Of a stretch of DNA of 32,000 nt, positions 18,589-32,000 are shown piece after piece (within the stretch, counting starts at the first letter, position 1; every line of letters begins with the position of its first letter). The translations under genes and the position numbers were made by a program. The stretch is from Paracoccus sp. N5 (GTDB lineage Bacteria > Pseudomonadota > Alphaproteobacteria > Rhodobacterales > Rhodobacteraceae), in contig NZ_AQUO01000001.1 of NCBI RefSeq assembly GCF_000371965.1, positions 1,359,331 to 1,391,330 on the forward strand, written 5' to 3'. The notes below the pieces were generated by a model that worked only from the letters and a program-made list of their open reading frames with translations, was not told the origin of the DNA and did no database searches.

Positions 18589-20510
18589 TCGTCGGGACGG
18601 CCGGCCATATCGACCATGGCAAGACGGCGCTGGTCAAGGCGCTGACCGGCACCGACGCCGACCGCCTGGCCGAGGAAAAGGCCCGCGGCATCACCATCGA
18701 CCTGGGCTTCGCCTATGCCGACCTGGGTGCGGGCACAGTCACCGGCTTCGTGGATGTGCCGGGACACGAGAAATTCGTCCATACCATGCTGGCCGGCGCC
18801 GGCGGCATCGACCTGGCGCTGCTGGTCGTCGCCGCCGATGACGGCATCATGCCGCAAACCCGCGAGCATCTGGCCATCCTCGACCTGCTGGGCATCCGAC
18901 GCGGCATGGTCGCGCTGACCAAATCCGACCTGGCCGAGCCCGACCGGCTGGCCGCGCTGAGCGCCGAGATCGTCGAATTGCTGGCCCCGACCGGGCTTGA
19001 CGGCGCGCCGGTCTTCCCGGTCTCCGCGCTGACCGGCGCCGGCATCCCCGCCTTGCGCGAGGCCCTGGCCCGGGCCGAGGCCGAGACGGCCGCCCGCGCC
19101 ACCGGCGACCGCTTCCGCATGGCCATCGACCGCAGCTTCACCCTGGCCGGGGCCGGCACCGTCGTCACCGGCACCGTGCTCTCGGGCCGGGTGGCGACCG
19201 GGGACCAGGTGATGCTCAGCCCCTCGGGCCTGCCGGCGCGGGTGCGCGGCATCCATGCGCAGAACCGCAAGGCGGATCAGGGGCTTGCCGGCCAGCGCTG
19301 CGCCCTGAACCTTGCCGGCGAGGCGATCACGCGCGAGGCGATCCACCGCGGCGACCTGGCGCTGGACCCGGTGCTGCACGCGCCGACGCAGCGCATCGAC
19401 GCGACCCTGCGCGTGCTTGCCAGCGAGCCGAAGCCGCTGGCCAGCTGGTTTCCCGCCCGCCTGCACCTCGGCGCGGCCGAGACCGGCGCCCGCATCGTGC
19501 CGCTGCAAGGCCCGCTGGGTCCGGGCGAGACCGGGCTGGCGCAGATCGTGCTGGACCGCCCCGTCGCCGCAGCCTTCGGCGAGCGTTTCATCCTGCGCGA
19601 TACCTCGGCCCGGCGCACCATCGGCGGCGGCAGCCTGATCGACCTGCGCCCGCCCGCCCGCCACCGCTCGCGCCCCGAGCGGCTGGCGCAGCTCGCCGCC
19701 ATGGCCCTGCCCAACCCGGCCGAGGCCCTGGCCGCCATGGCGCGGCATGGCGCGGTGGACCTCGACGCCTTCGCCCGCGACCGCGCGCTGGCGCCGCCGG
19801 GTCTGGCCCAGGCCGTGGCCGCTTCGGGCGCCGCCGTGATCCCCGGCACCCGGCAGGCGCTGTCGCCCGACCTGCTCGACGCGCTGCGCCAAGGGGTCAC
19901 CGCCCAGCTCACCGCCTTCCACGCCGAGAATGCCGACCTGCAAGGCCTGGGCCGCGAGCGCCTGCGCCTGGCCGTGCATCCCCGCCTGTCGCGCCCCGAT
20001 TTCACCGCCCTTCTGCGCGCCGAGGCCGAGGCCGGCCGCATCGCGCTCGACGGCGCCTTCGTCCGCCTGTCCGGCCACCTGCCCCGGCTTTCGGACCAGG
20101 ACGAGGCGCTGCTGGCCCGGATCCTGCCGAGCCTGGACGGCGACGAACGGTTCCGCCCGCCCCGCGTCCGCGACTTCGCCACCGAAATCGGCGCCGACGA
20201 GGCCGAGATCCGCCGCATCCTGCGCATGGCCGCACGCCAGGGCCGCCTCGACCAGATCGCGCATGACCATTTCTTCGCCCGCGCCACCACGATCGAGATG
20301 GTCGCCATCATCCGCGATGTCGCGGCGCAGGCCCCGGACGGCTGGTTCACCGCCCCCGCCTTTCGCGACCGGGTCCAGAACGGCCGCAAGGTGGCGATCC
20401 AGATCCTGGATTTCTTCGACCGGCTGGGTCTGACCTTGCGCCGGGGCGATCTTCGTCGCATCAATCCGCATCGGATCGACCTGTTCCAGCCGGACGGGCC
20501 CGATATGTGA
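18585..20510 (+). CDS. selB: Selenocysteine-specific elongation factor SelB
   Basis: GTPase motifs [19 protein letters not shown] and TKSD, with a long C-terminal extension (641 aa). ATGA overlap with selA. Confidence 0.93.
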
Positions 20511-20516
20511 ACGCAG

Positions 20517-20559
20517 GGAAGAGAAGCGTCCCCGGTGGGGCGGCCGGACTTCAAATCCG
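20517..20559 (+). repeat. attL: displaced 5' fragment of tRNA-Sec (43 nt, non-functional)
   Basis: GGAAGAGAAGCGTCCCCGGTGGGGCGGCCGGACTTCAAATCCG is identical to 30093-30135. It begins 6 nt after the selB stop and ends inside the 3' strand of the anticodon stem. No variable arm, T-arm or acceptor 3' strand follows. Confidence 0.9.
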
Positions 20560-20738
20560 CCCGAAAAACCAGAAATTGCAGGCGTGGAAAGTTGCGGAAG
20601 CGGCTGGAACCTTTCCAGAACGCATCGTGAATGTTGCGACGGTCTGCCTTCTGATCGGCGGTCGCCTGACGGCCTCGGCCCATGGATCCCGAATGACTAT
20701 CGCGACCTGCGGGACCGCATCCTCGGGGAGGGTGCGGA

Positions 20739-21110
20739 ATGAGCCGAAAGGTTGCCACCCTCGTCTATGAACGCCGCGCCGGATCATCGGCCCGCAAGGC
20801 AGTCCTGGCCTATTTCGCCGACTGCGCCGACGACTACGGCCGCGGCATATGGGCGTCGAAGAAGACAATCGCCGATGAGACCGAGCTTGGTCGTTCGACC
20901 GTCATCCGCGTCGTCAACGAATTCGTCGCAGAGGGCATACTGATCGTGTCCGGCCACCGCCCTTGCCGCAACGGCGCGACGGTAAATTACGATATGAACC
21001 TCGACGCCATCCGAAACCTCCCCAGCATCAATGCTTCACCCGACCCGTCCCAGAGCGGGACCTCATGGGGTCCCAGAGCGGGACCCAAACCGTCCTTGAA
21101 CCGTCCTTGA
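20739..21110 (+). CDS. Winged-helix/HTH protein, phage replication-organizer-like
   Basis: 123 aa. The region ARKAVLAYFADCADDYGRGIWASKKTIADETELGRSTVIRVVNEFVAEGIL resembles the wHTH of phage/plasmid replication or DnaD-like proteins. SD GGGGAGGG precedes the ATG. The 3' end carries DNA repeats. Confidence 0.6.
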   Translation: MSRKVATLVYERRAGSSARKAVLAYFADCADDYGRGIWASKKTIADETELGRSTVIRVVNEFVAEGILIVSGHRPCRNGATVNYDMNLDAIRNLPSINASPDPSQSGTSWGPRAGPKPSLNRP

Positions 21111-21113
21111 ACC
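21047..21113 (+). repeat. Iteron-like repeats at the junction of the two replication-module ORFs
   Basis: GTCCCAGAGCGGGACC occurs twice (21047-21062 and 21070-21085), and each copy contains the hairpin GTCCC-AGAGC-GGGAC. A tandem ACCGTCCTTGA x2 plus ACC follows (21089-21113). Confidence 0.75.
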
Positions 21114-21616
21114 AAGATGATGATGACCGCGTGCGCGAGCCAGACCATTTTTGGGGAATGATCCTCGAGGCGATGGGGCTGGACCCGGCAGAGGCGACGG
21201 CGCTTGGCGGGCCGGCGGATATGGCTGAAGCACGGGGCTGGCTTAAGCTGCCGCATATCACCGAAGAGCTGGTTTGCGAGCAGATCCGCGTGGTCATAGC
21301 CCGGAAAGGCGACAGGCAAATTCACTGCCTGGCCTATTTCACCCCCGAGATGCAGCGCTTGAGCGCGAGCCTCGAGGCGAGCAAGGTTCCGCTGACGCCG
21401 GCGACGCGCAGGCAGCCGGGCAGAGGCGAGGCGGTTCCGATGGCCGCGAACTCGGGCAAGGTCGATCTGGACGGGTTGGCCGCGTTGTGGGCGCCGAAGG
21501 TGGCCGGCGGAGGATATGTCCCGTCCTCGGCCATCAGCCCGGCGTTGGCGCGGCACATGCTCGAAAAGGGTCTGGTTGCACCGGCCGATCTGCGGCGCGC
21601 CGGGGTGTCGACATGA
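21065..21616 (+). CDS. Hypothetical protein of the replication-like module (start uncertain; may once have been fused to 20739..21110)
   Basis: The open frame runs from 20963, with ATG candidates at 21065 and 21158. It overlaps the upstream ORF in the -1 frame. The C-terminal part has no family I can recognise. Confidence 0.45.
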   Translation: MGSQSGTQTVLEPSLNQDDDDRVREPDHFWGMILEAMGLDPAEATALGGPADMAEARGWLKLPHITEELVCEQIRVVIARKGDRQIHCLAYFTPEMQRLSASLEASKVPLTPATRRQPGRGEAVPMAANSGKVDLDGLAALWAPKVAGGGYVPSSAISPALARHMLEKGLVAPADLRRAGVST

Positions 21617-21804
21617 GCGCTGGCGCTGCCGGCCGCAGCGAAAAGCCCCCGACCTGCCCTGTGGCGGTCGGGTTTGCGGCGCTGGAGCTGGCGCGCGGCA
21701 GAGAGCAGACGCCGCCGATGGCCTTGCGCGGCACGTCCTGCATTGCAGGCTGGACGATCACGCCGCCGGGGCTGGGGGACGCCTGGCACCCCCCCTTTTC
21801 GTAG
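21613..21804 (+). CDS. Small hypothetical protein (63 aa)
   Basis: ATGA stop-start overlap with the preceding ORF, followed by a terminator. No recognisable motif. Confidence 0.35.
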   Translation: MSAGAAGRSEKPPTCPVAVGFAALELARGREQTPPMALRGTSCIAGWTITPPGLGDAWHPPFS

Positions 21805-21863
21805 GTTCTTCCGAGGCCCCCACGCCATGCGAGGGGCGTATCCCCGCAAATATTCGCATGTGC

Positions 21864-21888
21864 GTGCCCTTTCGGGCGGCACTTTTTT
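21864..21888 (+). terminator. Rho-independent terminator ending the replication-like module
   Basis: GTGCC (21864-21868) ... GGCAC (21878-21882), followed by TTTTTT (21883-21888). It sits in an unusually AT-rich spacer. Confidence 0.7.
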
Positions 21889-22087
21889 ATTACTTCCTGG
21901 GGTGCCGCCGTGGCCAATGTGGACCTGCTGCTTGACCGGGAATATCCTTTGATTTTTCATATGGCTGACCCGGCGTCGGTCGATGGCTGGATTGCCCGCA
22001 GACGACCCCCCCATGAAATCCCGCCAGAGGAACGGCACGGGATACCCCCGTAACGTCCGGTAAGCCACCACAAGGAAAGGCTTTGCC

Positions 22088-22291
22088 ATGCTGCCGCGCC
22101 TGAAAACCACCATCGAGATCGACGGCGAGACCGCGCAACGCGTCGAGGCAGAACGCGAGCGGATCGCGGCTGAAACCGGGCTGCCGAAGGTGTCGCTCGC
22201 TTCCGTTATCGCCGCCGTCCTGCGCCGGGGGCTGCCGGCCTCGCCCTGCGACGGGGCCAAGCCGCCCATGCAGCCGCGCCGCGCTCGCTGA
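22088..22291 (+). CDS. Small ribbon-helix-helix-like protein
   Basis: 67 aa. MLPRLKTTIEIDGETAQRVEAERERIAAETG has the beta-strand/helix pattern of CopG/Arc/MetJ proteins. SD AAGGAAAGG is present. Confidence 0.5.
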   Translation: MLPRLKTTIEIDGETAQRVEAERERIAAETGLPKVSLASVIAAVLRRGLPASPCDGAKPPMQPRRAR

Positions 22292-22312
22292 TTTTTCCAG
22301 CTAGGAACCGCC

Positions 22313-23491
22313 ATGAGTTTCAAGAACAATGCCCCCTTCGACCGCAGCCAGAGCCGCAATCGCAGCGTCGTCGGGCAATACCTGACCCGCAACCAGCAGC
22401 CCGCCGAAAGCGCGGCCATGCACCTGCTGCGCCTGGCGCATGAGGAAGCCAGCCGCGTCCAGTCGCTTGGCCCGTCAACGCCGGCGGCGGCCTCGGGGCA
22501 TGCCGGCCAGGTCGCGGATACCCCGGCTATGGAGCGGCTCACCGATGCCGTCGCGCAGGCGCGCCGCGCGCTGCCGTTTGCCGAGCATGCGCCGGGCGGC
22601 GACCTCGACCGCATCATGCGTATTCCGATGCCCGCAGCGCGCATGGTTCATCTGAATATCGGAACTGACCATCTGCCCGTCTTCGATGCCCCCGCGGGCA
22701 ACCAGCCCAGCGAGGCCATGACCCTGGCCGAAAGCCTGCTGACCCATGCCCGCACCTTCCAAGCCGGCGCGCGACTGCTGATCGAGCCCAAGGGCCGCGT
22801 CATCGAGACCGGCACCGGCGTGCCCGCGCTGCAGGTGGTGCCCATGGGCCTCGAGGTGGTGCGGGCCGCGCCCTTCGCGGTGGTGACGGACCCGGATGGC
22901 GACGATGATCCGGAAAACCCCGGCACGGCCCCGCTGATCCCGCTCGATACAATTCTGGCCGGCGCACGGATCGAAAGGCCCGACGATCTGAAAAACTATG
23001 CGATCCGGGTCTCGCTGACCCGGCGCGAACAGAAAGATCGCAACGACGGCGAGTTGCTGGCCGCTCTGCTGCATTCCATCACGCTGGGTCTGGCCCAGGC
23101 GGCCGATGCCGAGCTTCTGGGCGCGATCCTGGCGGCTGATCCGGGGACGTTCAGCCTGGGCGCTGCCGCGGCCAAGGGCGTGCGCTTTCACGAACTGCGC
23201 GCCATCGTCGGCACCGATGAGCCGGTGAGCGGGTCGGATTTCGGCCCGGGCTATGGCGACCAGCCCGGCCAGCTGTTCGTGCATTCGATCCCGGCCGAGC
23301 TGTGTGCCGCTGCCGCGCGGACGGTGATCGGCGCTTTCGATCGCTTTGGTCTGGCCATCGGCGGCGATATCCGGCTGCTGATCGATCGCACCGCCGTGGA
23401 TGGCAGCCTGACTGCCACCTGCTGGTGCGCGATGAAGGCTGTCCTGCCCGATCCGGGCTTTGCCTGGCGCTTTACTCCGGAGATGCCGTGA
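22313..23491 (+). CDS. Candidate HK97-fold major capsid-like protein (divergent)
   Basis: 392 aa. The segment IRVSLTRREQKDRNDGELLAALLHSITLGLAQAADAELLGAIL and the C-terminus ..LTATCWCAMKAVLPDPGFAWRF resemble the conserved central and C-terminal patterns of phage major capsid proteins. Small coupled ORFs and a gpZ-like gene follow, matching the lambda/HK97 head-to-tail gene order. This call rests on pattern recognition only. Confidence 0.45.
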   Translation: MSFKNNAPFDRSQSRNRSVVGQYLTRNQQPAESAAMHLLRLAHEEASRVQSLGPSTPAAASGHAGQVADTPAMERLTDAVAQARRALPFAEHAPGGDLDRIMRIPMPAARMVHLNIGTDHLPVFDAPAGNQPSEAMTLAESLLTHARTFQAGARLLIEPKGRVIETGTGVPALQVVPMGLEVVRAAPFAVVTDPDGDDDPENPGTAPLIPLDTILAGARIERPDDLKNYAIRVSLTRREQKDRNDGELLAALLHSITLGLAQAADAELLGAILAADPGTFSLGAAAAKGVRFHELRAIVGTDEPVSGSDFGPGYGDQPGQLFVHSIPAELCAAAARTVIGAFDRFGLAIGGDIRLLIDRTAVDGSLTATCWCAMKAVLPDPGFAWRFTPEMP

Positions 23492-23844
23492 TGGGCCTGC
23501 GGGACTGGTTCAGCCCCCGCGGCGCGCATCGGCCCGCACCCGCGGCGCCGGGGAACATGCTGCCGGCCGAGGTCGTGGCTGTGGTGCAGGCGGCAAGCAT
23601 CCGCAACGCCAACCGCCCGGATGCCGAGGGCAGCCCGATCATCCATGTGACGGCGCCGGCGCTGGGCCGGTTCCGCTGGGTCGATCTGGACAAGGCTGCC
23701 GACCGCATTTCGGATGCCTGGCCCGAGCTGACGCCCGCCCAGTGCTTCCGCGCCGCGCAGCTGATCGAGGCGGCGGTGGGCGACGCGGCCATTGCGAGCC
23801 TGCAGCGCGGGCAACCCCGGCGCAGCTGGGTCTGGGACTGGTGA
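23491..23844 (+). CDS. Hypothetical protein (117 aa), head-tail connector position
   Basis: TGATG stop-start overlap with the capsid-like gene. Its position is that of head completion/adaptor genes. Confidence 0.5.
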   Translation: MGLRDWFSPRGAHRPAPAAPGNMLPAEVVAVVQAASIRNANRPDAEGSPIIHVTAPALGRFRWVDLDKAADRISDAWPELTPAQCFRAAQLIEAAVGDAAIASLQRGQPRRSWVWDW

Positions 23845-24017
23845 TGGCGCGCAAGCCGCTGCCCGCGTCTCTGCGCCGCCTCGCCAAGCCCACGGCCGCG
23901 CTGGCGGTCGAGAATACACCCCCGCCCAAGGGCAAGAACCCCAGCGCCCGCCGGGTTCGGCGGCTGGCGCGCAAGGGCTGGCTGATCGGCTGGCCGTTTT
24001 CCAAAGGAGTGCTGTGA
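23844..24017 (+). CDS. Small basic hypothetical protein (57 aa)
   Basis: TGATG overlaps at both ends. Lys/Arg-rich. Confidence 0.45.
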   Translation: MARKPLPASLRRLAKPTAALAVENTPPPKGKNPSARRVRRLARKGWLIGWPFSKGVL

Positions 24018-24364
24018 TGGCGACACGCTATCAGCTGACGATCATCGGGGAAGCCGCCCAGGTTGCGCCTTCCATCATCGTGGACGGGCGCGCGTTGCAG
24101 GACGGCCAGAGGGTCGAGGTTGACCTTGCCACGGCCGTGGCCCTGGTCGAGCGCGGCCTTGCTATCCCGCGCGGCAGGATCGAGATCGAGCCGGTGCTGA
24201 AACCGAAACGCGGGCAGGCTGTCATGGTCGATGGCAGGGCCTGCTTTGACGGCGACACGGTCGAGGCCGGCTGGGCCGTCGCGCATGACCTGGTCGCGCG
24301 CGGCCGTGCCCGTCTGGCCGAGGGCGTCAGGCTGCCCCGCTTCAACCCGGATGCGCGCAAATGA
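24017..24364 (+). CDS. Hypothetical protein with two copies of a ~35-aa module
   Basis: Contains IIVDGRALQDGQRVEVDLATAVALVERGLA and VMVDGRACFDGDTVEAGWAVAHDLVARGRA. TGATG overlap upstream and ATGA overlap downstream. Confidence 0.55.
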   Translation: MATRYQLTIIGEAAQVAPSIIVDGRALQDGQRVEVDLATAVALVERGLAIPRGRIEIEPVLKPKRGQAVMVDGRACFDGDTVEAGWAVAHDLVARGRARLAEGVRLPRFNPDARK

Positions 24365-24576
24365 TGTTCGAAATCGAGATCATCGGCCAGCACCGGCCAG
24401 CCTCGCCCCTGCGCCCCGCACCGCGGGCAGGGATCATCCTGCATGGTCAGGCCCGCCTTGCCGGCGAGCGCATCAGCGTGGACTGGGCGACTGCGCGGCA
24501 CCTGATCGCCAACGGCCGCGCCAAGCCCGCGCCGGGCGTGACGATCCCGCTCTTGGACCCGGAGCGGCGCCAATGA
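24361..24576 (+). CDS. Hypothetical protein with a third copy of the same module
   Basis: IILHGQARLAGERISVDWATARHLIANGRA aligns with both repeats of the preceding ORF. ATGA overlaps on both sides. Confidence 0.55.
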   Translation: MMFEIEIIGQHRPASPLRPAPRAGIILHGQARLAGERISVDWATARHLIANGRAKPAPGVTIPLLDPERRQ

Positions 24577-25172
24577 GCCGATGGAGCCGCCGTATTCCCG
24601 GCCCGCAGGTTTCCATCGAGGTCGATCTCCGCCAGGTCAAGATGGTGATTGATGAGCTGAAAAGTACCAAGGAGGAGGTCGGCGCGTCCCTATCCAAAGC
24701 ACTGCGCCGCACCGCCAGCGCCTTGCGCGTCATGTCATCCAAGCGCCTGGTTCCCGAACTTCAGCTGCGCCGCGCAATGGACCTGCGCAAACGGCTGAAA
24801 ACCATGAAGGTACGGGCCAAGGGCAAGGACGCCGAACAGGTGATTGGCTTGTGGTTCGGGCTGTCCAGGATGCCGGTCTCGGCCTTCAAGGGCCGGCCCG
24901 TACAAACCGGCAAAGGCGTGAGCTTTCAAGGCAGAGAATATAAGGGCCGATTCCTGGCAACCATGCCAGGACAGACGCATGCCGGAATGTTCCGCCGCAA
25001 GGGTCGTGCGCGTTTGCCGATTGTCGGTCAGAACGTCGAGATCAAGGATGTGGTGGACCCGATCATCGAGGATGAAATCTTCCCGAAGGCCACGGAAATA
25101 TTCATCCGGAACTTCCTGCATGATCTGAAGTGGCGTGCCAGCCAGCGGAACAAGCCTTCAGCCGGGGAATAG
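24573..25172 (+). CDS. Phage minor tail protein Z-like / tail-completion protein
   Basis: 199 aa. The layout ..ALRRTASALRVMSSKRLVPELQLRRAMDLRKRLK.., ..MPVSAFKGRPVQTGKGVSF.., ..GMFRRKGRARLPIV.. parallels lambda gpZ as I recall it. It is the last gene of the virion-type operon. Confidence 0.5.
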   Translation: MSRWSRRIPGPQVSIEVDLRQVKMVIDELKSTKEEVGASLSKALRRTASALRVMSSKRLVPELQLRRAMDLRKRLKTMKVRAKGKDAEQVIGLWFGLSRMPVSAFKGRPVQTGKGVSFQGREYKGRFLATMPGQTHAGMFRRKGRARLPIVGQNVEIKDVVDPIIEDEIFPKATEIFIRNFLHDLKWRASQRNKPSAGE

Positions 25173-25182
25173 CATCGGGATA

Positions 25183-25212
25183 CCCGGCGCGCTGTTCATG
25201 GGGCGCGCCGGG
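25183..25212 (+). terminator. GC-rich hairpin, probable terminator of the virion-type operon
   Basis: 10-bp perfect stem CCCGGCGCGC (25183-25192) / GCGCGCCGGG (25203-25212) with a 10-nt loop. It starts 11 nt after the TAG stop. No U-tract. Confidence 0.5.
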
Positions 25213-25492
25213 CAGACGGGGCGGGATGCGCCTGGCTTTTATCCATGGGCCGAAGCAACCGGGCAAGTCGGCGAGTGCCCCATAACCCCGACATGGCGCG
25301 GCCGTGGCCTTGTCGGCGCGGCGCCACAGCCCCGGTGCAGCACATGCTGGCCGGGGCTTTCTCTTTGCGCCAGCGGCGTGCCATGGCACACCTGCCATTG
25401 GCGGACGTGCGCGCCGGGTTGTTCAACCTGCAATGCAGGATGTTGCATCTCTACCACACTCCCCATTGGGGGACGTCATCAATGTGAGGGCG

Positions 25493-25512
25493 TCAGACCC
25501 CGGCCAGCTTGC
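25493..25512. repeat. 20-bp direct repeat of the brnA 3' end
   Basis: TCAGACCCCGGCCAGCTTGC is identical to 25628-25647, which covers the stop codon and last 6 codons of brnA on the minus strand. Confidence 0.8.
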
Positions 25513-25627
25513 CAGAGGTGTTCCACCGGCGGTGGACGACATCCGCGCCGGGCAGAGCGCGAACGTCCTTCATCCTCGCTTTGAGGGCGGATCATTGCGA
25601 CAACCCCCATGGGGCTCGCCAGGCGGA

Positions 25628-25870
25628 TCAGACCCCGGCCAGCTTGCGCAGGGCGTCGTCTATGCGGCTTTGCCAGCCCGGGCCGCCGGCCTTGAAATAG
25701 GCGATCACCTCGGGGCTAAGCCGGATGGTGGTGCTGACCTTGGCGTTTTCCAGCTTCGGCCGGCCGCGCTGGACCGTGGCCTTGGCGGCGCGCTTTTCCC
25801 AATAGGGCGTCGCCAGGTCGGGCGCGTCGTCGTCAAAATCGGGGGGCATAGGCTTTCTGTTCGCGGTCAT
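25628..25870 (-). CDS. brnA: BrnA-family antitoxin
   Basis: 80 aa. ..RGRPKLENAKVSTTIRLSPEVIAYFKAGGPGWQSRIDDALRK.. matches the BrnA (COG3514) signature. It overlaps the brnT 3' end. Confidence 0.8.
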   Translation of the reverse strand: MTANRKPMPPDFDDDAPDLATPYWEKRAAKATVQRGRPKLENAKVSTTIRLSPEVIAYFKAGGPGWQSRIDDALRKLAGV

Positions 25871-26105
25871 TGGCCTTCCTCATGCTGATGACGTGGGCGG
25901 TGTCGCTGCGCGGCGTCCAGACCATCACCACCATGCGGCCGCGCAGGAAGCCGATGCTGATGAGGCGGGTTTCGCCATAGTCGAAGCGATCATCCTCGAA
26001 CGTCAGTGTCGCGCCAGCCAGAACCTCGGCGCCGTCCGCTTCAAGATCGATCCCCCGCTCTGCAAGGGTCTTGGCGCGCTTCGCCGGGTCGCTGGTGCAT
26101 TTCAT
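25833..26105 (-). CDS. brnT: BrnT-family (DUF497) ribonuclease toxin
   Basis: 90 aa. DPAKRAKTLAERGIDL...DDRFDYGETRLISIGFLRGRMVVMVWTPRSDTAHVISMRKANDRE matches the BrnT pattern, including ISMRKA..E. Confidence 0.8.
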   Translation of the reverse strand: MKCTSDPAKRAKTLAERGIDLEADGAEVLAGATLTFEDDRFDYGETRLISIGFLRGRMVVMVWTPRSDTAHVISMRKANDREQKAYAPRF

Positions 26106-26153
26106 GTAGTAACAATAATTATGAGGGGCGCGGGCGTCAATATCTGTAGTAAC
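26105..26153. promoter_or_regulatory. Candidate brnTA operator: two TGTAGTAAC boxes 40 bp apart
   Basis: TGTAGTAAC at 26105-26113 (abutting the brnT start codon) and at 26145-26153, within an AT-rich 60-bp spacer. Confidence 0.4.
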
Positions 26154-26165
26154 GGAAAGTCGTGG

Positions 26166-26540
26166 TCAGGGCTTGAGGCGACGCTTGCGGCGTCTGCGCG
26201 GCAACAGAAGCTGCGGGAGGGCATGATAGCAACCCAGCCGCAAGCTTATAATCAGCGGAGGCGTCCATCCCGGTATCCAGGGTTCGGTCTCTTTGGCGGT
26301 GATCACTCCGTGCATCACATGCTCCACCTTGTTCACCGCTCCGCCGCGAACAATGAAGGCGACCCTTGCCCCCTCGACCACGCCCCACAACGCCAGCACA
26401 TCGGGACAGTAGTGGGTCAATAGCAGGGATATTTCCATGCTCTCTTGTTCCGCGTCTAGGTGCGCGGGCGGGGTGAAATCTATGATATGCCCGGCATAGC
26501 CCTTGTCAGCGACAGATAGGAACATGGTCGACAAAGGCAT
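26166..26540 (-). CDS. Hypothetical protein (124 aa), unknown function, lower-GC cargo gene
   Basis: The ORF lies 6 nt downstream of the Arc-like gene on the same strand. It has a basic C-terminal tail RRRRKRRLKP. I recognise no family. Confidence 0.45.
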   Translation of the reverse strand: MPLSTMFLSVADKGYAGHIIDFTPPAHLDAEQESMEISLLLTHYCPDVLALWGVVEGARVAFIVRGGAVNKVEHVMHGVITAKETEPWIPGWTPPLIISLRLGCYHALPQLLLPRRRRKRRLKP

Positions 26541-26546
26541 TGGCGG

Positions 26547-26945
26547 TCAGGGCTTCAGGCGCTGGGCGAGCTTGTCTGCCAGCAGGTTGGCAAAGCTCTC
26601 AATGTCATCTGCAGCCCGCAGCTTTCTCAATACCTGTCCGATCGGCATTTTCCCGACATCTGGCACCCCCTTCAGGGCATCGCCGATGCCCTCACTCTGC
26701 CGATCCAAGGCTGCTACAGGCTCCCCGCTTTCTTCATGCTTTGCCAACATATCGCCGACCGTGTTGGGGCGATCTTCGTCATGCCAATCGTAATACTTCT
26801 GGAGCGCCATCAGAATTTCTGAATGAAGGCTGCGCCCATGCAGATCAGCCTCCTCCTGAATAAACTCCTTCAAGGCCGGCGGGATGCGCAAGCCATAGGG
26901 TGCCAGGCGGGTGGGGTATTTTCGAGAGTCAGCCATAGCGGCCAT
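26547..26945 (-). CDS. Arc/MetJ-type ribbon-helix-helix regulator with a ~80-aa C-terminal extension
   Basis: YGLRIPPALKEFIQEEADLHGRSLHSEILMALQKYY is an Arc-family RHH motif. The start is uncertain (ATG 26945, 26936 or 26978). Confidence 0.65.
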   Translation of the reverse strand: MAAMADSRKYPTRLAPYGLRIPPALKEFIQEEADLHGRSLHSEILMALQKYYDWHDEDRPNTVGDMLAKHEESGEPVAALDRQSEGIGDALKGVPDVGKMPIGQVLRKLRAADDIESFANLLADKLAQRLKP

Positions 26946-27006
26946 TGGTAACCAATTTTTCCTTGACTGAAAATACATACCAATGGTAACTAACTACCAA
27001 TGGTAG
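26942..27006. promoter_or_regulatory. Divergent promoter/operator region with three CCAWTGGTA boxes
   Basis: CCATTGGTAA at 26942-26951, CCAATGGTAA at 26980-26989, and CCAATGGTAG at 26997-27006. The AT-rich spacer contains TTGACT (26963-26968). The region lies between two divergently oriented Arc-family genes. Confidence 0.55.
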
Positions 27007-27024
27007 TTGATGGAGAGCACCCAG

Positions 27025-27183
27025 ATGGAAAAATATGAGCAGATCTCGCTGCGCCTACCCGACGGTTGGCGCCGTGCGCTGAAGATCGCCGCCGCCGTGA
27101 ACGGCCGCAGCATGAACGCCGAGATCGTGCAGCGTCTGCGCCCGACCCTCGAAGCCGCCGATGCCCAGCGCCCGCAATCCTGA
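27025..27183 (+). CDS. Arc-family ribbon-helix-helix repressor (not in the supplied ORF track)
   Basis: My own translation gives MEKYEQISLRLPDGWRRALKIAAAVNGRSMNAEIVQRLRPTLEAADAQRPQS*. The motif LRLP....L...A...GRSMNAEIV..L is the Arc-domain signature. SD GGAGAG precedes ATG 27025 (alternative ATG 27010). Confidence 0.7.
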   Translation: MEKYEQISLRLPDGWRRALKIAAAVNGRSMNAEIVQRLRPTLEAADAQRPQS

Positions 27184-27253
27184 AATGAAAGCGGCCGGGC
27201 AGCGTTGCACCGCTGACACCGGCCTTGATGCCCCCGAGAAAGGACATTTCCCC

Positions 27254-27478
27254 ATGAATATCCCTGAAAATCCCTGCAAAGGCAACCTGCCGGTTTCGCC
27301 AGCGCCCCGCCGCCGGCCCGGCCAGCCCAAGCGCAAGGCCACCGAAAAGCGCGTCAGCCGCGCCGCCAGCCTGATCCAGGACCATATCGCTGTGCTGACT
27401 GCCCAGCGCATCACGCTGCCCGTCCTCGGTCTCGAGGTCGCGCTGGATGAGCTGCGCCAAATCGGGGGTGCGCAATGA
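27254..27478 (+). CDS. Small hypothetical protein (74 aa), ends ..RQIGGAQ
   Basis: SD AAAGGA upstream. The 3' end is junction cassette copy 1. The N-terminus MNIPENP parallels MNIQPNEP of ORF 31092..31313. Confidence 0.5.
   Translation: MNIPENPCKGNLPVSPAPRRRPGQPKRKATEKRVSRAASLIQDHIAVLTAQRITLPVLGLEVALDELRQIGGAQ
27461..27478 (+). repeat. Stop-start junction cassette copy 1 (ATCGGGGGTGCGCAATGA)
   Basis: 18-mer shared with 27808-27825 (identical), 28397-28414 and 28600-28617 (2 to 3 differences each), and with 31092-31109 on the minus strand. Confidence 0.85.
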
Positions 27479-27825
27479 ACCGCCGCGATCTGATCGCCCT
27501 GCCGGCCGCTGTCGCCTTCGCACCTGCGCCGGCGCTGGGCGCTGCAATCGCCCCGGTTTCCCTGCGGGCGCTGTGGCAGCATGCGAAAGCGCTGAATGAC
27601 CGCCTCGAGGCGACCGAGCGCGCCGAGGATCCGGTCGCCTGGGATGCCGGCATGGCGCAGCTCATCCATCTTCAGGACCGGATCGCCGCGGCACCGGCCT
27701 GCACGCCCGAGGCTTGGGCGATAAAGGTCTTGAGCGCCGACGATGGCGGCGCCATCGAGAATGCCAGCGATCTGGGCCGCGCCCTGGTCGAACAGGCGCG
27801 CAGCATGATCGGGGGTGCGCAATGA
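27475..27825 (+). CDS. Hypothetical protein with twin-arginine-like N-terminus (116 aa), ends ..SMIGGAQ
   Basis: MNRRDLIALPAAVAFAPAPALGAA is similar to MNRRALLKALPAAVVAGAAPAAA of ORF 30321..30674. ATGA overlaps at both ends. Confidence 0.55.
   Translation: MNRRDLIALPAAVAFAPAPALGAAIAPVSLRALWQHAKALNDRLEATERAEDPVAWDAGMAQLIHLQDRIAAAPACTPEAWAIKVLSADDGGAIENASDLGRALVEQARSMIGGAQ
27808..27825 (+). repeat. Stop-start junction cassette copy 2 (ATCGGGGGTGCGCAATGA)
   Basis: Identical to copy 1. Confidence 0.85.
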
Positions 27826-28202
27826 GCCGCCGTCCCACCGTGGCGCGTTTCTCGCTTTCCGCGTCCGCGCGCCAGCACATCGACGCCATCATGGCTACGG
27901 CACGCGACCAGATAGAAGCCGTTCTGCAACGAGAGGTGTCCCGCCTGATCGCAGATGCGCATGACGGCGCTAACCAAAAGGCTGCGCACCACCGCCCGGC
28001 GAAGCAGGAGGTTATGGCAACGCCCGCAGTCCCGCAGCCGATCTATATCCGCCCGGGCAAGGCGCAGCAGATGTTCGGCGTGCATCGCGCAACGCTATAC
28101 CGCTGGGCGAATGCCGGCCACATCACCATTCACAAGCGCGGCGCAGCGACCTTTGTCCGGCTGGACGAGGTGCGCGCCTTCATCGAAGGAAACCAGCCAT
28201 GA
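27822..28202 (+). CDS. Excisionase/AlpA-type HTH DNA-binding protein
   Basis: The C-terminal IYIRPGKAQQMFGVHRATLYRWANAGHITIHKRGAATFVRLDEVRAFIEG matches the MerR-like HTH_17/AlpA/Xis pattern. It lies upstream of int in the same operon. Confidence 0.65.
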   Translation: MSRRPTVARFSLSASARQHIDAIMATARDQIEAVLQREVSRLIADAHDGANQKAAHHRPAKQEVMATPAVPQPIYIRPGKAQQMFGVHRATLYRWANAGHITIHKRGAATFVRLDEVRAFIEGNQP

Positions 28203-28414
28203 TGACGCGCGACCTGCAACGCGCCGCGAACGACCAGACGGAGGCCGACGCCCAGGCTGAAGAGATCCTGCGCCGCGTCTATGCGCTGACCGCCCCTTAC
28301 CAGCGCCGCGTGGTCGAATGGCTGCGCGGGCATTCCGACCCCGACATGCGCGACCTCGCCACGCCGCTCGAGGAGGTGCTCACCCTTCGCCGACTGATCG
28401 GGGGTGAACAATGA
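28199..28414 (+). CDS. Small hypothetical protein (71 aa), ends ..RLIGGEQ
   Basis: ATGA overlaps on both sides. SD AAGGA upstream. Confidence 0.5.
   Translation: MMTRDLQRAANDQTEADAQAEEILRRVYALTAPYQRRVVEWLRGHSDPDMRDLATPLEEVLTLRRLIGGEQ
28397..28414 (+). repeat. Stop-start junction cassette copy 3 (ATCGGGGGTGAACAATGA)
   Basis: 16 of 18 identical to copy 1. Confidence 0.8.
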
Positions 28415-28617
28415 GCATTACCCGCATCATTCAGGTGGATACGCAAGGCAAGCCGCTTGACGGGCCAGACCTGATCTTCACGAACAAGTGGGCTGTCAAA
28501 GCCGGATTAATGGAAAATCGGCCGGTCGTTGTTCGGGCATTTGAAGCGCGAATCACGAAAAAGGGCTTGGCCGAAATCGCCCGTCAGATGGGCCGGCAGA
28601 TCGGGGGTGAACCATGA
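28411..28617 (+). CDS. Small hypothetical protein (68 aa), ends ..RQIGGEP
   Basis: ATGA overlaps on both sides. Locally lower GC. Confidence 0.5.
   Translation: MSITRIIQVDTQGKPLDGPDLIFTNKWAVKAGLMENRPVVVRAFEARITKKGLAEIARQMGRQIGGEP
28600..28617 (+). repeat. Stop-start junction cassette copy 4 (ATCGGGGGTGAACCATGA)
   Basis: 15 of 18 identical to copy 1. Confidence 0.8.
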
Positions 28618-28835
28618 CCCGGCTTGTCCATCCCTCCTCGCCGCTCCGGCACCAGACGCTGATCTTCGCCGGCTATGCTGCCCTTCTCTTGGCCTTCGGC
28701 GCCGCGGCGCTGGGCGCCCTGTTGGCCCCGCAGTTCGACTGGGCGGGCCTCTGGGGCGATCTGTCCGACTTTGCCGCCTCCACGGCCGCCCAGGCGCGCG
28801 CCGAGGGCTGGGCCGCGCTTTCCGAGAGGGCGTGA
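28614..28835 (+). CDS. Small membrane protein (73 aa, one TM helix)
   Basis: Hydrophobic stretch LIFAGYAALLLAFGAAALGALLA. ATGA overlap upstream. Confidence 0.5.
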   Translation: MTRLVHPSSPLRHQTLIFAGYAALLLAFGAAALGALLAPQFDWAGLWGDLSDFAASTAAQARAEGWAALSERA

Positions 28836-28838
28836 GCC

Positions 28839-29012
28839 ATGGGTGTCCGTACCAAGTTCAGCCAAGCCGACCTAGAGAAGGTGCTTCGCACGACCAGAGA
28901 GGCCGGCCTGCCGGTGACCGTAGTCAGGATAGGGCCGCAGGGGGAAATCGAAGTGCGCTGCGGCCCGCAGGAACCCGCAGACGAATTCGACGCGACGGAT
29001 ATGCGCCGATGA
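28839..29012 (+). CDS. Small hypothetical protein (57 aa; not in the ORF track)
   Basis: My own translation gives MGVRTKFSQADLEKVLRTTREAGLPVTVVRIGPQGEIEVRCGPQEPADEFDATDMRR*. SD GAGAGGG upstream, and an ATGA overlap with the int start. Confidence 0.5.
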   Translation: MGVRTKFSQADLEKVLRTTREAGLPVTVVRIGPQGEIEVRCGPQEPADEFDATDMRR

Positions 29013-30016
29013 CCAAGAAGGAACTGCCGAAACACGTCTATCGCAAGAAGGGCGGCAAGGTCTATTTTCAGCGCCGCGGCTTCAAGACGGTCCGTTTCAT
29101 CAGCGAACCGGGCACTTCGGAGTTCGCTGCGGAATATGCCCTGATCCTGCGCGGCCGCGCGCCGGTGCCCGAAGGGCGAACCCTGAAGGCATTGGCGATC
29201 AGTTACCAGCTCAGCGACCGCTTCACGGGCTTGGCGCCTAGAACGCGGCAGGATTATCTGCGCGTGCTGGACTATGTGAAGGAGAAGCTGGGCCACCTGC
29301 CGGCCGACAGAATGCAGCGCAAGGACGTGATCCGGGCACAGCAGGCCAACAAGGACGCGGTGCGCTTCGCCAACTACATCGTCCAGGTGCTTCGCGTCAT
29401 GTTCGAGCATGGGATCGATCAGGGCTGGCGTGACGACAATCCAGCCAAAGGCGTTCGCCTGCTGAAAAGCGGTCGGCCGCCCCGCTTGCCATGGCCGCCC
29501 GAGAAAATCACGGCGTTCCGTGAGGCTGCGCCCCTTGGGACCCGCGGCAGGTTGATCTTCGAGCTTCTGCTGGGCACCGGCCAGCGCATTGGTGATGTGC
29601 TCAAGATGCGGTGGAACGACCTCGAGGAAGGCGGGGTGAATGTCCGACAGGGCAAGACAGGAGCGGAGTTGTGGATACCGCTGACCAGCGGCTTGCGCGA
29701 GGCGCTGGGCGCGACGCCAAAGGCCGGACTGACCATCTGCGCGCAGCTGAACGGCAGCCCGACCAGCTACGACGGTGCGCATGCCATGATCATGGCCATT
29801 CGAAAGGAAATCGGCGCCGAGGCCTTCGACATTCACGCCTTGCGCCACACCGCGGCGCATGAGCTGGCTGCGGCCGGCTGCTCGGGCGAACTGATCCAGG
29901 CGATCACGGGGCATACGAACCTGGGGATGGTGAAGCACTATACTGGTTCCGCTAGCCAGAAGCCCCGTGCTAAGGAGGCGCAGTCGCGCCGCGAACAGAA
30001 CAGGTGCGAAACGTGA
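29009..30016 (+). CDS. int: Tyrosine recombinase / phage-type integrase
   Basis: 335 aa with catalytic signature LLLGTGQRIGD (Arg I), HALRHTAAH (H-x-x-R), ITGHTN and VKHY (Tyr). Start at ATG 29009, not at 28529 as in the track. It ends 76 nt before tRNA-Sec. Confidence 0.9.
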   Translation: MTKKELPKHVYRKKGGKVYFQRRGFKTVRFISEPGTSEFAAEYALILRGRAPVPEGRTLKALAISYQLSDRFTGLAPRTRQDYLRVLDYVKEKLGHLPADRMQRKDVIRAQQANKDAVRFANYIVQVLRVMFEHGIDQGWRDDNPAKGVRLLKSGRPPRLPWPPEKITAFREAAPLGTRGRLIFELLLGTGQRIGDVLKMRWNDLEEGGVNVRQGKTGAELWIPLTSGLREALGATPKAGLTICAQLNGSPTSYDGAHAMIMAIRKEIGAEAFDIHALRHTAAHELAAAGCSGELIQAITGHTNLGMVKHYTGSASQKPRAKEAQSRREQNRCET

Positions 30017-30092
30017 AAGTTGAGAAGCTGTTGCGAACGGCCCAAATCGGGGGCACGGATGCAGCGAACAAACCATTGGAAACGATGGTGAT

Positions 30093-30135
30093 GGAAGAGA
30101 AGCGTCCCCGGTGGGGCGGCCGGACTTCAAATCCG
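30093..30135 (+). repeat. attR core: 43-bp repeat forming the 5' part of the intact tRNA-Sec
   Basis: Identical to 20517-20559. The flanking bases differ on both sides (20516 G vs 30092 T; 20560 C vs 30136 G). Confidence 0.9.
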
Positions 30136-30188
30136 GTTGGGGCAGTCAGCCTGTCCCGGGTGGGTTCGACTCCCACTCTCTTCCGCCA
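30093..30188 (+). tRNA. selC: tRNA-Sec (anticodon UCA)
   Basis: 96 nt with an 8-bp acceptor stem GGAAGAGA/TCTCTTCC, discriminator G and encoded CCA. The anticodon stem is CCGGA/TCCGG with loop CTTCAAA (TCA at 30127-30129). It has a long variable arm and a T-arm GTGGG-TTCGACT-CCCAC, and overall closely parallels E. coli selC. Confidence 0.93.
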
Positions 30189-30291
30189 AAATGCCCATTT
30201 AACTGGTTGTTATTGCTAAATTATATCCTGGCATCACAGCGGCGTCCCGCCAATGCATCCCCCACGCGGAATTGGCCAGAATGACGGATTT

Positions 30292-30313
30292 GCCCCCGGC
30301 CGAAGCCAGGGGC
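30292..30313 (-). terminator. Stable hairpin with UUCG tetraloop downstream of ORF 30321..30674
   Basis: The minus strand reads GCCCCUGGC-UUCG-GCCGGGGGC, a 9-bp stem including one U-G pair. It begins 8 nt after the stop codon. No U-tract. Confidence 0.45.
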
Positions 30314-30320
30314 GTTGGTA

Positions 30321-30674
30321 TCAAGCAACGAGCGCTCGGGCCTCGGCCCAGAAAGCATGATCGTCATTCGGCAATTCAAATGTCCCGTAGCTCGTCCACG
30401 CCAGCGCCTTGGCGATCATGTCGCGCGCATCCTCTGCGGGCGCTTCCATAATCCGATTGCTCAACTCATTCTGAGCGAACAGGTCGGCGTTAAACTGGCT
30501 CTCGGGCATCGTGCGGCCTTCTTCGCCGTTCAGTCGGGTTTCCTCGGCAACCCACTGTCGAAACATCCGCATGACCGGCGTCTCAGCCAGGTCGACCACG
30601 CACAGCGCAGCAGCCGGCGCCGCACCCGCGACAACCGCCGCAGGCAGGGCTTTCAGAAGGGCACGGCGGTTCAT
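30321..30674 (-). CDS. Hypothetical protein with twin-arginine-like N-terminus (117 aa); paralog-like to 27475..27825
   Basis: Reads MNRRALLKALPAAVVAGAAPAAA.... SD AAGGAGG upstream and an ATGA overlap with the upstream ORF. Confidence 0.55.
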   Translation of the reverse strand: MNRRALLKALPAAVVAGAAPAAALCVVDLAETPVMRMFRQWVAEETRLNGEEGRTMPESQFNADLFAQNELSNRIMEAPAEDARDMIAKALAWTSYGTFELPNDDHAFWAEARALVA

Positions 30675-30895
30675 TGTCCGGCCTCCTTGCGCTGGATCTG
30701 ATACTCGGCCTCAAGCAGCTCCTGCGCCTTCTTGACGCGATCCGCGACCACTTGGATCAGGTTGATGATGCCCGAGGCGATGGGCGCGTCGTCTTGCGTC
30801 AGGTGGTCGAGGGCCACTTCATCAAGGACGCACAGCAGCGCCCCGATGGTATGAAGCTCGGCTTCGGTTTCGCTATGCGCTTTGAAATAGCTCAT
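30671..30895 (-). CDS. Small hypothetical protein (74 aa)
   Basis: ATGA overlaps at both ends. SD GGAGGG upstream. Confidence 0.5.
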   Translation of the reverse strand: MSYFKAHSETEAELHTIGALLCVLDEVALDHLTQDDAPIASGIINLIQVVADRVKKAQELLEAEYQIQRKEAGQ

Positions 30896-31095
30896 GCCTC
30901 GCCCTCCTTCGGCAGGTTGATGCTGTCGAGATTGTTGTTCACCTCAAGCGCCATTTCCTTGGCGAGTTGCACCAGGGTCGGCTGAGCGTTCGGGACCACG
31001 CCATCGAGCGCGCAGGCTTCCAGAAGTTCCAGCAGATCGCACAGCCGCCCCATGATGGTCTGCTGGTCTTGGATATGTCGGGTAAGCGCGCTCAT
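30892..31095 (-). CDS. Small hypothetical protein (67 aa)
   Basis: ATGA overlaps at both ends. The junction cassette GATCGGGGGTGCGGCATGA precedes it on the minus strand. Confidence 0.5.
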   Translation of the reverse strand: MSALTRHIQDQQTIMGRLCDLLELLEACALDGVVPNAQPTLVQLAKEMALEVNNNLDSINLPKEGEA

Positions 31096-31109
31096 GCCGC
31101 ACCCCCGAT
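31092..31109 (-). repeat. Stop-start junction cassette, fifth copy, inverted relative to the island copies
   Basis: The minus strand reads ATCGGGGGTGCGGCATGA, 16 of 18 identical to 27461-27478. The upstream protein ends ..SLIGGAA. Confidence 0.8.
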
Positions 31110-31313
31110 CAGGCTGACGGTGTAGCGCTTCGCGGCGCGAAGGTAGCGGCGCAGTTCCTTTTCCCGCTGGGTGTAATCACCGCTGTCCTTGTGGCTCACG
31201 TCGAGCGCCAGCGACAGGCTGTCGTCCAATTCGTAGAGGTCCGCGAGCGACATGCTGGGGGCCGGGACGGCGGGCGCCCCAACCATACGCGGTTCATTCG
31301 GTTGGATGTTCAT
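31092..31313 (-). CDS. Small hypothetical protein, ends ..SLIGGAA (start ATG 31313; alternative GTG 31325)
   Basis: The N-terminus MNIQPNEP parallels MNIPENP of ORF 27254..27478. The C-terminus is encoded by the junction cassette. Confidence 0.5.
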   Translation of the reverse strand: MNIQPNEPRMVGAPAVPAPSMSLADLYELDDSLSLALDVSHKDSGDYTQREKELRRYLRAAKRYTVSLIGGAA

Positions 31314-31346
31314 TTCAGTTCTCACAGTTCTGGCTTTCCACAGCCG

Positions 31347-31589
31347 TCACTGGTTGCGGACCAGCGGCCGGGGGTTGGAAACCTGCTGTGAGACAGGTCG
31401 GACGACTTTAAGGTTTCCCTCTGGACATAGCATCCGCCCCCGGCCTATAAAGGTCGGGACGCAGATGCCCGCCAAGGCATCCGTCATTTCGACCGCGAGC
31501 TTCCGCGCCAACGGATGCTCAACCTGCCAAGGTATGCGGTCTATCACAGTCAGGGTTTCCACACCCACTGACCACGCTACACCCGACAT
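31347..31589 (-). CDS. Hypothetical protein (80 aa), weakly supported
   Basis: Same strand, 21 nt upstream of the next ORF. No clear SD and no motif. Confidence 0.3.
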   Translation of the reverse strand: MSGVAWSVGVETLTVIDRIPWQVEHPLARKLAVEMTDALAGICVPTFIGRGRMLCPEGNLKVVRPVSQQVSNPRPLVRNQ

Positions 31590-32000
31590 GCCGAAAAGGT
31601 CAAGCCTGCCCCTCGGGGCGGTGGCATGCGTTTGTGCCGCATCGGTCGTTTCTCGACGCGGGCGTAACCTCTCTGCGCGCAGTTCAGCGCGCTACATTGG
31701 AATGAGGTTACACATGACCATCCAAAAGAAATTGCGTGTGCCCAGCGGAGTGCAGATCTGGGTCAACGACGGGCATTTGGCACCGGATTGGGTTGCTGAG
31801 GCTGTCCAAGAGGAACGGGCGTGCAACGGCTCACTGCTCCTGCGAACGCAACTAGGCGTTGCCCGGGTTCACAGAGGCATGTCGTGATCAGATGACGACT
31901 GCCTTTCCTGCCGAAGCCCCGAGGACCTGGACGAGTTCCTTCGCGGCCTGACGCAAGAAGCGGCGCCGGTCATTGCGGCCATCGGCCCTGGTAAATCGGC

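Follow-up and report, generated by a model that had tools for sequence, protein, structure and literature searches.

A repeated stop/start junction as a probable short-homology boundary for small-gene cassettes in a phage-derived island of Paracoccus sp. N5

Two standard models are used to explain the mosaicism of phage genomes: homologous exchange at short boundary sequences, as in the modular theory, and illegitimate recombination that is filtered by selection (PMC3029335; PMC3974807). The usual objection to the boundary-sequence model is that most mosaic joints show no such sequence (PMC3029335). A described case is the ORFan gene 68 of the mycobacteriophage Island3. The C-terminal 18 residues of its product, together with about 50 bp, are also found in the upstream gene 67, and recombination between these repeats was the interpretation given (PMC3029335). 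In T4-type phages, the promoter-early stem-loop (PeSL) cassettes shuffle small ORFans and form mini-circles (PMC2839356, PMC4122927). A literature search for recombination boundaries that are based on ribosome binding sites found nothing specific. Here we describe an 18-bp sequence that joins overlapping small genes in a predicted 9.6-kb phage-derived integrative element of Paracoccus sp. N5, which is set in the gene of tRNA-Sec (selC) and bounded by a 43-nt repeat. The element lies in a stretch of 32,000 nucleotides (contig NZ_AQUO01000001.1, positions 1,359,331 to 1,391,330 of the forward strand); this whole stretch is called the window and all positions refer to it. With moderate confidence, we propose that the 18-mer is a translational coupling junction that probably also serves as short homology for the gain, loss and exchange of cassettes in the phage-derived islands of Paracoccus.

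A first-pass annotation of the window had pointed to a nearly identical 18-mer at four gene junctions, and this was confirmed: ATCGGGGGTGNNCNATGA has four exact matches on the forward strand, at positions 27461, 27808, 28397 and 28600. When up to two mismatches were allowed, a fifth real copy with one mismatch (ATCGGGGGTGCGGCATGA) was found on the reverse strand at 31092-31109, to the right of the tRNA. Dinucleotide-preserving shuffles of the window contained on average 0.10 matches to ATCGGGGGTGNNCNATGA and never more than one, and the about 20 kb of chromosomal genes in the window have no copy of ATCGGGGGTGNNNNATGA. Each of the five copies consists of the last five codons and the TGA stop codon of one open reading frame (ORF) that overlaps the ATG of the next ORF (ATGA). 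Copies 1 and 2 (ATCGGGGGTGCGCAATGA in both cases, 27461-27478 and 27808-27825, forward strand) join the ends of g1 (…LRQIGGAQ) and g2 (…SMIGGAQ) to the starts of g2 and g3, respectively, and are identical at 24 of 25 bases when 27461-27485 is compared with 27808-27832. Copy 3 (ATCGGGGGTGAACAATGA, 28397-28414, forward strand) joins the end of g4 (…RRLIGGEQ) to the start of g5 and copy 4 (ATCGGGGGTGAACCATGA, 28600-28617, forward strand) the end of g5 (…RQIGGEP) to the start of g6, and these two copies are the left and right edges of the g5 cassette. At copy 5, the end of r1 (…SLIGGAA) overlaps the start of r2. The five upstream proteins thus end in IGGAQ, IGGAQ, IGGEQ, IGGEP and IGGAA; the suspicion that the shared tails reflect paralogy was checked by all-against-all BLASTP, which detected no similarity among these proteins apart from the tails, in agreement with the first-pass annotation. 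The single real relationship in this comparison is between g2 and r4 (30% identity).

The genes in question form an operon, g1 to g7, followed by the tyrosine integrase gene of the element (29009-30016, forward strand), and four of the seven junctions from g1 to the integrase are motif copies 1-4. All seven are on the forward strand. The small ORFan g1 (27161-27478) encodes 105 amino acids if read from the ATG at 27161, or 74 if read from 27254, with a conserved …ELRQIGG tail; this end is conserved in all g1 homologues. It is followed by g2 (27475-27825, 116 amino acids), whose N-terminus MNRRDLIALPAAVA… looks like a twin-arginine signal peptide, by g3 (27822-28202, 126 amino acids), an excisionase-like DNA-binding protein with an HTH_17 domain that is joined to g4 without the motif, and by the small ORFan g4 (28199-28414, 71 amino acids), whose orthologues end in …RRL(I/M)GG in the P. 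aminovorans and P. simplex elements and in …RRLMGMG in P. limosus. The mobile cassette g5 (28411-28617, 68 amino acids) measures 203 bp from motif to motif and has a GC content of 0.56, compared with 0.68 and 0.73 for its neighbours. The last two genes encode a small hydrophobic ORFan (g6, 28614-28835, 73 amino acids) and a small ORFan with the motif at neither end (g7, 28839-29012, 57 amino acids). At NCBI, g1, g2 and g5 are entered as hypothetical proteins of Paracoccus sp. N5, and g2 is 100% identical to its entry.

Relatives of the operon were found via homologues of g2, g5 and g1 and via DNA patterns, and about 15 elements were compared. Other searches gave the following: for 26500-30200, a distant blastn comparison with 50,697 phage records found no match except the tRNA-Sec segment, an integrase-based search of genome contigs returned no relatives, a g1-profile search of viral contigs returned one contig that other searches had already found, and a metagenome scan with a 23-mer from the g1 end returned two loci only.

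One difference between relatives concerns g5. In N5 and in locus L246, g4 is followed by copy 3, g5, copy 4 and g6, while in P. aminovorans-type elements a single ATCGGGGGTGAACCATGA joins g4 straight to g6 and g5 is absent; the P. simplex element likewise has no g5. By this comparison, g5 is a 203-bp presence/absence unit whose edges fall exactly in copies 3 and 4. A homologue of g5 (66% identity) is found in a different position in locus L245: it lies between a g1-like and a g3-like gene (g3'), which is the slot of g2 in N5, and has ATCGGGGGTGCGCAATGA on both sides. A second presence/absence difference, in the P. denitrificans group, is seen between loci L274 and L272. L274 has a g1-like gene, ATCGGGGGTGCGGCATGA, an r4-like gene (119 amino acids, ending in ALIGGAA), ATCGGGGGCGCAGCATGA and the gene Y142, in this order, while in L272, from P. 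denitrificans, the g1-like gene is joined to Y142 through ATCGGGGGTGCAGCATGA. The L272 sequence is a hybrid that takes its T from the left L274 copy and its A from the right one; this is a single case, but it locates a crossover within the motif. The space between g1 and an r4/g2-like gene is filled in P. limosus by an anti-repressor gene of the Ant type, which has a motif copy at each end, and the pair of Ant and r4-like gene, joined by the motif, is also present in P. homiensis. In L280, the homologues of g2 and g3 are in reversed order.

The end of g1 summarises this variability: among 13 elements it is followed by five different families, and it never departs from the first ten motif bases, ATCGGGGGTG, at more than one position. 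At the g3-g4 junction, which has no motif, the partner is kept in five of six elements. Across the whole family, about 15 types of gene-pair adjacency have at most one mismatch to ATCGGGGGTG. The 18-mer of copy 5 is also found at the junction between g1 and the r4-like gene of L274, and Fertoeibacter niger has an r1-like gene, then the motif, then a different gene. The earlier suggestion of a recombination linker that allows gene cassettes to be shuffled is supported by two precise presence/absence differences at motif copies, one hybrid empty site and one gene in two slots.

All motif copies are direct repeats in one frame register, and all single-gene units have a length of 3n+2 bases: 347 and 203 in N5, 227 in L245 and 710 in P. 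limosus. As a consequence, a unit can be lost or gained with no damage to either neighbour and with the coupling kept. We propose the following mechanism. The same junction, including the ATC that is not part of the Shine-Dalgarno (SD) sequence and often a CG(N)C(A/T)G before the ATC, is common to many gene boundaries in the family; recombination between two copies would remove a whole small gene, and a gene would be inserted or swapped when the reaction ran backwards or when a related element took part in an exchange. Neither neighbour would be damaged and the coupling would be preserved, so that the outcome would be an in-frame, plug-and-play cassette boundary. The IGGxx tail of the upstream protein would then be a side effect of the junction rather than a peptide with a function. 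The pattern of indels and slots is directly visible in the relatives; the recombination behind it was most likely short-homology recombination of a general type, by the host RecA or a helper-phage recombinase, or replication slippage.

How does this compare with the systems described previously? The closest single example is Island3. There, as here, a short repeat is found at gene boundaries and an ORFan indel is flanked by direct repeats; the ORFan ends in a C-terminal tail copied from the gene before it, and either a deletion within one molecule or an exchange between two would account for the indel. The N5 repeat differs in being shorter (18-26 bp) and in being itself the SD sequence and overlap, which gives it a separate reason to persist. 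It is also present in up to four copies in one operon, with a fifth in a neighbouring module, and at the many gene-pair types of the family, and it keeps all cassettes in one frame register. Features expected of boundary sequences are found in this family: occurrence at boundaries that are not orthologous, breakpoints between relatives that coincide with the motif, the (single) hybrid junction and similarity beyond functional need.

The closest system is PeSL, in which a repeated expression signal likewise flanks small non-essential genes of unknown function and indels or replacements end in the repeats. Recombination between neighbouring PeSL repeats would free a circle with one gene and one repeat; for N5, such a circle is a prediction. 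However, the PeSL repeat is an intergenic sigma-70 promoter with a terminator hairpin, while the N5 motif is a signal for translation, lies within coding sequence and has no hairpin, and the host of PeSL is a lytic T4-type phage and not a temperate phage-derived island of an alphaproteobacterium. With its position inside overlapping coding sequences and no shared or stable hairpin, the N5 motif was not classified as a PeSL.

The core of the motif is, very probably, an ordinary SD-dependent translational coupling junction, judged from its anatomy and from established knowledge. GGGGGUG is complementary to CACCUCC of the 16S 3' tail with one G·U pair, as had been noted in the first-pass annotation. 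Four nucleotides separate this purine-rich complement to the anti-SD from the downstream ATG, where about 4-9 nt are expected of an SD; in all five copies the ATG overlaps the TGA of the preceding ORF, and both flanking ORFs are present. Calculated anti-SD duplex energies at the five junctions range from -13.0 to -16.4 kcal/mol and are the strongest in the window; for fourteen host genes they range from -1.4 to -14.9 kcal/mol. The anti-SD tail used for these calculations (CACCUCCUUUCU) is a generic sequence and not one taken from this genome. An SD sequence in this reading frame would force a Gly-Gly pair (GGG GGT), and the overlap would force a last codon that ends in A. Both glycine codons are minor here (GGG 16-21%, GGT 8-12% of glycine codons), as an SD embedded in coding sequence predicts. 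The earlier claim that the constraint acts on nucleotides is thus correct for GGG-GGT but not for ATC, which with 78-90% is the usual isoleucine codon. A termination-reinitiation module, as proposed earlier, agrees with the anatomy of a strong SD four bases before the ATGA overlap, but this anatomy is generic and not peculiar to this locus. The C before NATGA, described as conserved, is not general, as it is absent from the fifth copy and from several relatives.

Two other roles in translation were considered. Additional pairing of the ATC with the 16S rRNA was ruled out by inspection, as the facing bases of the rRNA tail are U, U and A or U. Programmed frameshifting of the dnaX or prfB type was rejected too: C GGG GGU is not an X XXY YYZ sequence, CAA UGA does not allow +1 re-pairing, and the downstream frame is -1 and not +1.

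The tails themselves could be functional, with the C-terminal peptide I-G-G-(A/E)-(Q/P) acting in processing or degradation or as a ubiquitin-like GG tail. Five unrelated proteins do end in IGG plus two residues, and the g1 family keeps LRQIGG over a wide divergence. However, both glycines are encoded by minor codons that jointly spell an SD sequence, and the residues after GG follow the neighbouring gene and not the protein: g5 ends in EP before g6 in N5 and in AQ before g3' in L245. Further, orthologues of g4 end in MGGAP or MGMG, and r4 of N5 lacks the tail that its L274 relative has. Of all explanations weighed here, we regard a functional peptide as the least probable.

Next, there is the question of how common the motif is elsewhere, as a sequence found at any ordinary gene junction would be no more than a preferred SD context. 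For its core, this is indeed the case. At least 120 viral contigs, with GC contents of 41-71%, carry the codon-free 15-mer GGGGGTGCGCAATGA, which served as a control for the frequency of ATC, where the stop and start codons of unrelated genes meet; the matches listed contain 108 distinct contexts, and in most of these the ORFs to the left and right are 40 codons or longer. The triplet before GGGGGTGCGCAATGA varies (GAA 13, GCA 10, CAA 9) and is ATC in only two of the 108 contexts, one of which is a relative of the N5 element. Triplets that end in A (GAA, GCA, CAA, AAA) are over-represented at this position in the viral contigs (L128-L244), suggesting an extended ribosome site, AGGGGGUG. The original 18-mer pattern has at least 120 viral matches, and 81 of the 120 listed are junction-like, with at most one copy per locus. 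About 1 Mb of unselected flanks of the viral matches contained three other NNNGGGGGTGNNNNATGA sites, none with ATC. A full census of 185,579 species genomes with the 19-mer GATCGGGGGTGCGCAATGA identified 22 loci, 20 of which are flanked on each side by an ORF of 40 codons or more; about 15 of the 22 belong to unrelated phyla and seven to Paracoccus (four), Fertoeibacter, Roseicyclus or related alphaproteobacterial, Rhodobacterales-type genomes. Thus, GGGGGTG-N4-ATGA is a very common coupling junction, and terminal …GG(A/E)x tails (for example …GGAQ) are its widespread footprint in phage ORFans. The ATC-extended form, with several copies per locus, is peculiar to this Paracoccus element family: ATC is present in five of five N5 copies and in two of 108 generic contexts, and the shared ATC and flanks are thus family-specific.

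These numbers bear on the main rival explanation, which is pure convergence on an optimal SD. In this scenario, the motif is only SD and overlap, reached independently at each junction; genes turn over by illegitimate recombination, selection keeps the events at boundaries, and the sequence itself has no role in recombination. The recurrence of the 15-mer, and even of the 19-mer, at junctions of unrelated phages and phyla is what convergence predicts, and N5 shares with ordinary ATGA coupling the geometry, the anti-SD complementarity, the overlap and the identical 15-mer. In contrast, ordinary junctions share no bases outside the SD and do not coincide with cassette indels. Convergence leaves unexplained why all N5 copies have a non-SD ATC that is seen at about 2% of generic junctions with the same core, and why copies 1 and 2 are near-identical well beyond the SD. 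It also does not predict that two indels end exactly in motif copies, that one empty site is a hybrid of both flanking copies, or that the same gene, g5, occupies two slots and is flanked by the motif in each. We consider pure convergence unlikely, but it has to be taken seriously.

Several observations weigh against a role of the motif in cassette exchange, and some of them favour convergence. Mosaic joints without the motif exist: g6-g7, at the start of the aminovorans-type integrase module, and the junction of the g2-like gene with g4 in P. limosus; in L275, g3 is truncated 15 nt past the motif. Such breakpoints indicate that illegitimate recombination followed by selection is also at work. 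The motif, described as invariant, is so within N5 but not in relatives: in distant ones, orthologous junctions drift to GGGGGCG (the copy-2 junction in P. simplex and L022), GGCGGTG, GGAGGTG, GGGGTTG or GGAGGTC, with ATG or GTC in place of ATC, while the genes persist. The drifted junctions still hold an SD-like G-run and the overlap, so that selection holds these two features and the extended identity is not strongly maintained by it; the extra identity looks historical, refreshed by recombination or by recent cassette movement. The copies in L278 and in N5 give a hint of concerted evolution inside single elements. No recombination event has been observed, all being deduced from static comparisons of sequences, and insertion and repeat-mediated deletion are indistinguishable. 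Each key case is represented by one or two contigs, several of them short metagenome or Logan contigs. Lastly, 18-26 bp is at the lower limit of the length that RecA-type recombination is known to use.

Rearrangements inside genes were also seen. P0005 (loci L278 and L279, with P0020) is an in-frame g1::g2 fusion in which junction 1 is lost, in P0020 the N-terminus of g1 is joined to an r4-like C-terminus, and L270 has an r4-like gene with the first approximately 12 codons of g2 (2416-2745). Recombination thus also occurs within genes near the operon junctions. In the P. simplex locus L127 (6962-7130), the g6 homologue lacks about 70 nt right after the junction ATGA and is not in frame with that start codon, which gives it the look of a cassette in decay.

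The drift at orthologous junctions is also relevant for the idea, raised early, that the motif is bound by a regulator: a cis-acting mRNA or DNA site for an element-encoded protein or small RNA, for example a translational repressor of AUCGGGGGUG, which would co-regulate the cassette genes. The repeats are in exact register with the start codons and the operon encodes several DNA-binding proteins, as expected for such a site. Still, an Rfam scan of 20000-32000 returned nothing above threshold except for tRNA-Sec, and no family at the motif copies. The five motif contexts fold differently, with no fold common to all and stabilities no greater than those of shuffled sequences (z-scores of -0.8 to +0.8). 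Substitutions inside the motif are tolerated at orthologous sites, and across the family the motif is not accompanied by any candidate regulator. A regulatory site is therefore improbable.

A further possibility is that the motif is the target of a dedicated, site-specific or enzyme-directed insertion of cassettes, similar to integrons, by the integrase of the element or by another enzyme. Indels that end precisely within 18 bp, and an integrase gene in the same operon, are in line with this. As in an integron, promoterless single genes in one orientation are gained, lost and reordered at a repeated boundary. Unlike in integrons, the N5 boundary is within coding sequence and frames are preserved, and there is no attC inverted repeat or hairpin, no IntI-type integrase and no attI. 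The integrase is of the phage type and its attachment (att) site is the 43-nt tRNA-Sec segment, which is unlike the motif, and the same motif is found in elements with unrelated integrases (about 36% identity). We thus rejected the classification as an integron array and judge a dedicated insertion system as highly improbable.

The motif copies were also considered as arm-type sites of the integrase and discarded: they are 1.5-2.6 kb away from the att core, are in strict register with start codons and accompany unrelated integrases. The 12-mer CCAAATCGGGGG at 30042, in the spacer between integrase and tRNA, had been listed as a relative of the motif and could have been such an arm site or part of an enzyme target close to att. 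It is not conserved in the P. simplex orthologue and is best explained by chance: the 8-mer ATCGGGGG is found seven times in the window with 2.6 expected, five of these are the motif copies and the other two are within chance.

A stronger version of the exchange proposal would have the junction held by selection as a boundary, or recognised by a dedicated factor, which would make the islands an in-frame, integron-like cassette system. We think this doubtful. If true, any motif-bounded gene could leave as a circle and re-insert at any motif junction, already coupled, and the motif would be a natural 'standard part' interface for accessory genes.

The N5 locus is of interest for the old and unsettled question whether mosaic phage genomes come from homologous exchange at boundary sequences or from illegitimate joins made at random and then filtered by selection. 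It is a compact natural case in which the boundary sequence is visible, present in multiple copies and has an independent reason to exist. The precise, frame-preserving turnover, the one hybrid junction and the one slot change in relatives make the recombination model directly testable in a culturable bacterium. The locus also suggests a possible reason for the unusual C-terminal tails that small ORFans of temperate elements often have in common. Annotators who meet a recurring C-terminal …GG(A/E)x in phage ORFans should interpret it as an SD footprint rather than a protein motif.

Outside of the operon, the window is organised as follows. Positions 1-20510 are chromosomal and contain parA, rsmG, mnmG, mnmE, rho, a formate-dehydrogenase-like operon, fdhE, selA and selB. 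Directly after selB is the left attachment repeat (20517-20559, forward strand), a 43-nt copy of the 5' half of tRNA-Sec, which is repeated in direct orientation with 100% identity at 30093-30135. The latter copy is the right attachment repeat and makes up the first 43 nt of an intact tRNA-Sec gene (selC, 30093-30188, forward strand), as identified by repeat comparison and Rfam. The repeat reaches the anticodon loop of tRNA-Sec, and the interior of the element comprises 20560-30092. With the intact tRNA at the integrase end, the element appears to provide the 5' part of the tRNA gene and not, as is usual, the 3' part.

The element carries a replication initiator (O-like, 20739-21110), one tail-completion gene (tail-completion/Neck1, 24573-25172) and a BrnT/BrnA toxin-antitoxin pair. 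Genes for a capsid or a terminase are absent, and the element may be a satellite or a prophage in decay. A candidate Arc-like repressor (26547-26978, reverse strand) is divergent from the operon, whose first rightward gene encodes an Arc/ribbon-helix-helix regulator (27025-27183, forward strand). Before the replication initiator gene and after the left att repeat, a junction-like sequence, CTCGGGGAGGGTGCGGAATGA (20716-20744, forward strand), shows 72% identity to the 29-nt context of the motif. There is no convincing ORF upstream that would end at this sequence.

To the right of tRNA-Sec there is a second, related module of four overlapping small genes, r1-r4 (30321-31325, reverse strand), in which r4 is the homologue of g2. 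These genes read toward the 3' end of tRNA-Sec, and no integrase is encoded between r4 and the tRNA. In Fertoeibacter niger, the r1-like gene adjoins an integrase with 35% identity. The r1-r4 module is probably what is left of a second related element at this tRNA, or else its far end. Just upstream of r1, at 31358-31445 (reverse strand), there is a weak, sub-threshold Rfam match to sRNA-Xcc1 (30.7 bits versus a gathering score of 53, E = 0.048).

Two further features of the window lie outside the operon. The large subunit of a formate-dehydrogenase-like enzyme of the DmsA family (11465-14644, forward strand) has an in-frame TGA at 12158-12160 that splits it into two ORFs of the same frame; this TGA is probably a selenocysteine codon, in keeping with the neighbouring downstream genes selA, selB and that of tRNA-Sec. 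The 20-nt sequence TCAGACCCCGGCCAGCTTGC is perfectly repeated in direct orientation at 25493-25512 and 25628-25647, at a distance of 135 bp; brnA (reverse strand) has its 3' end in the form of the second copy, which suggests a small duplication or the leftover of the end of a second antitoxin gene.

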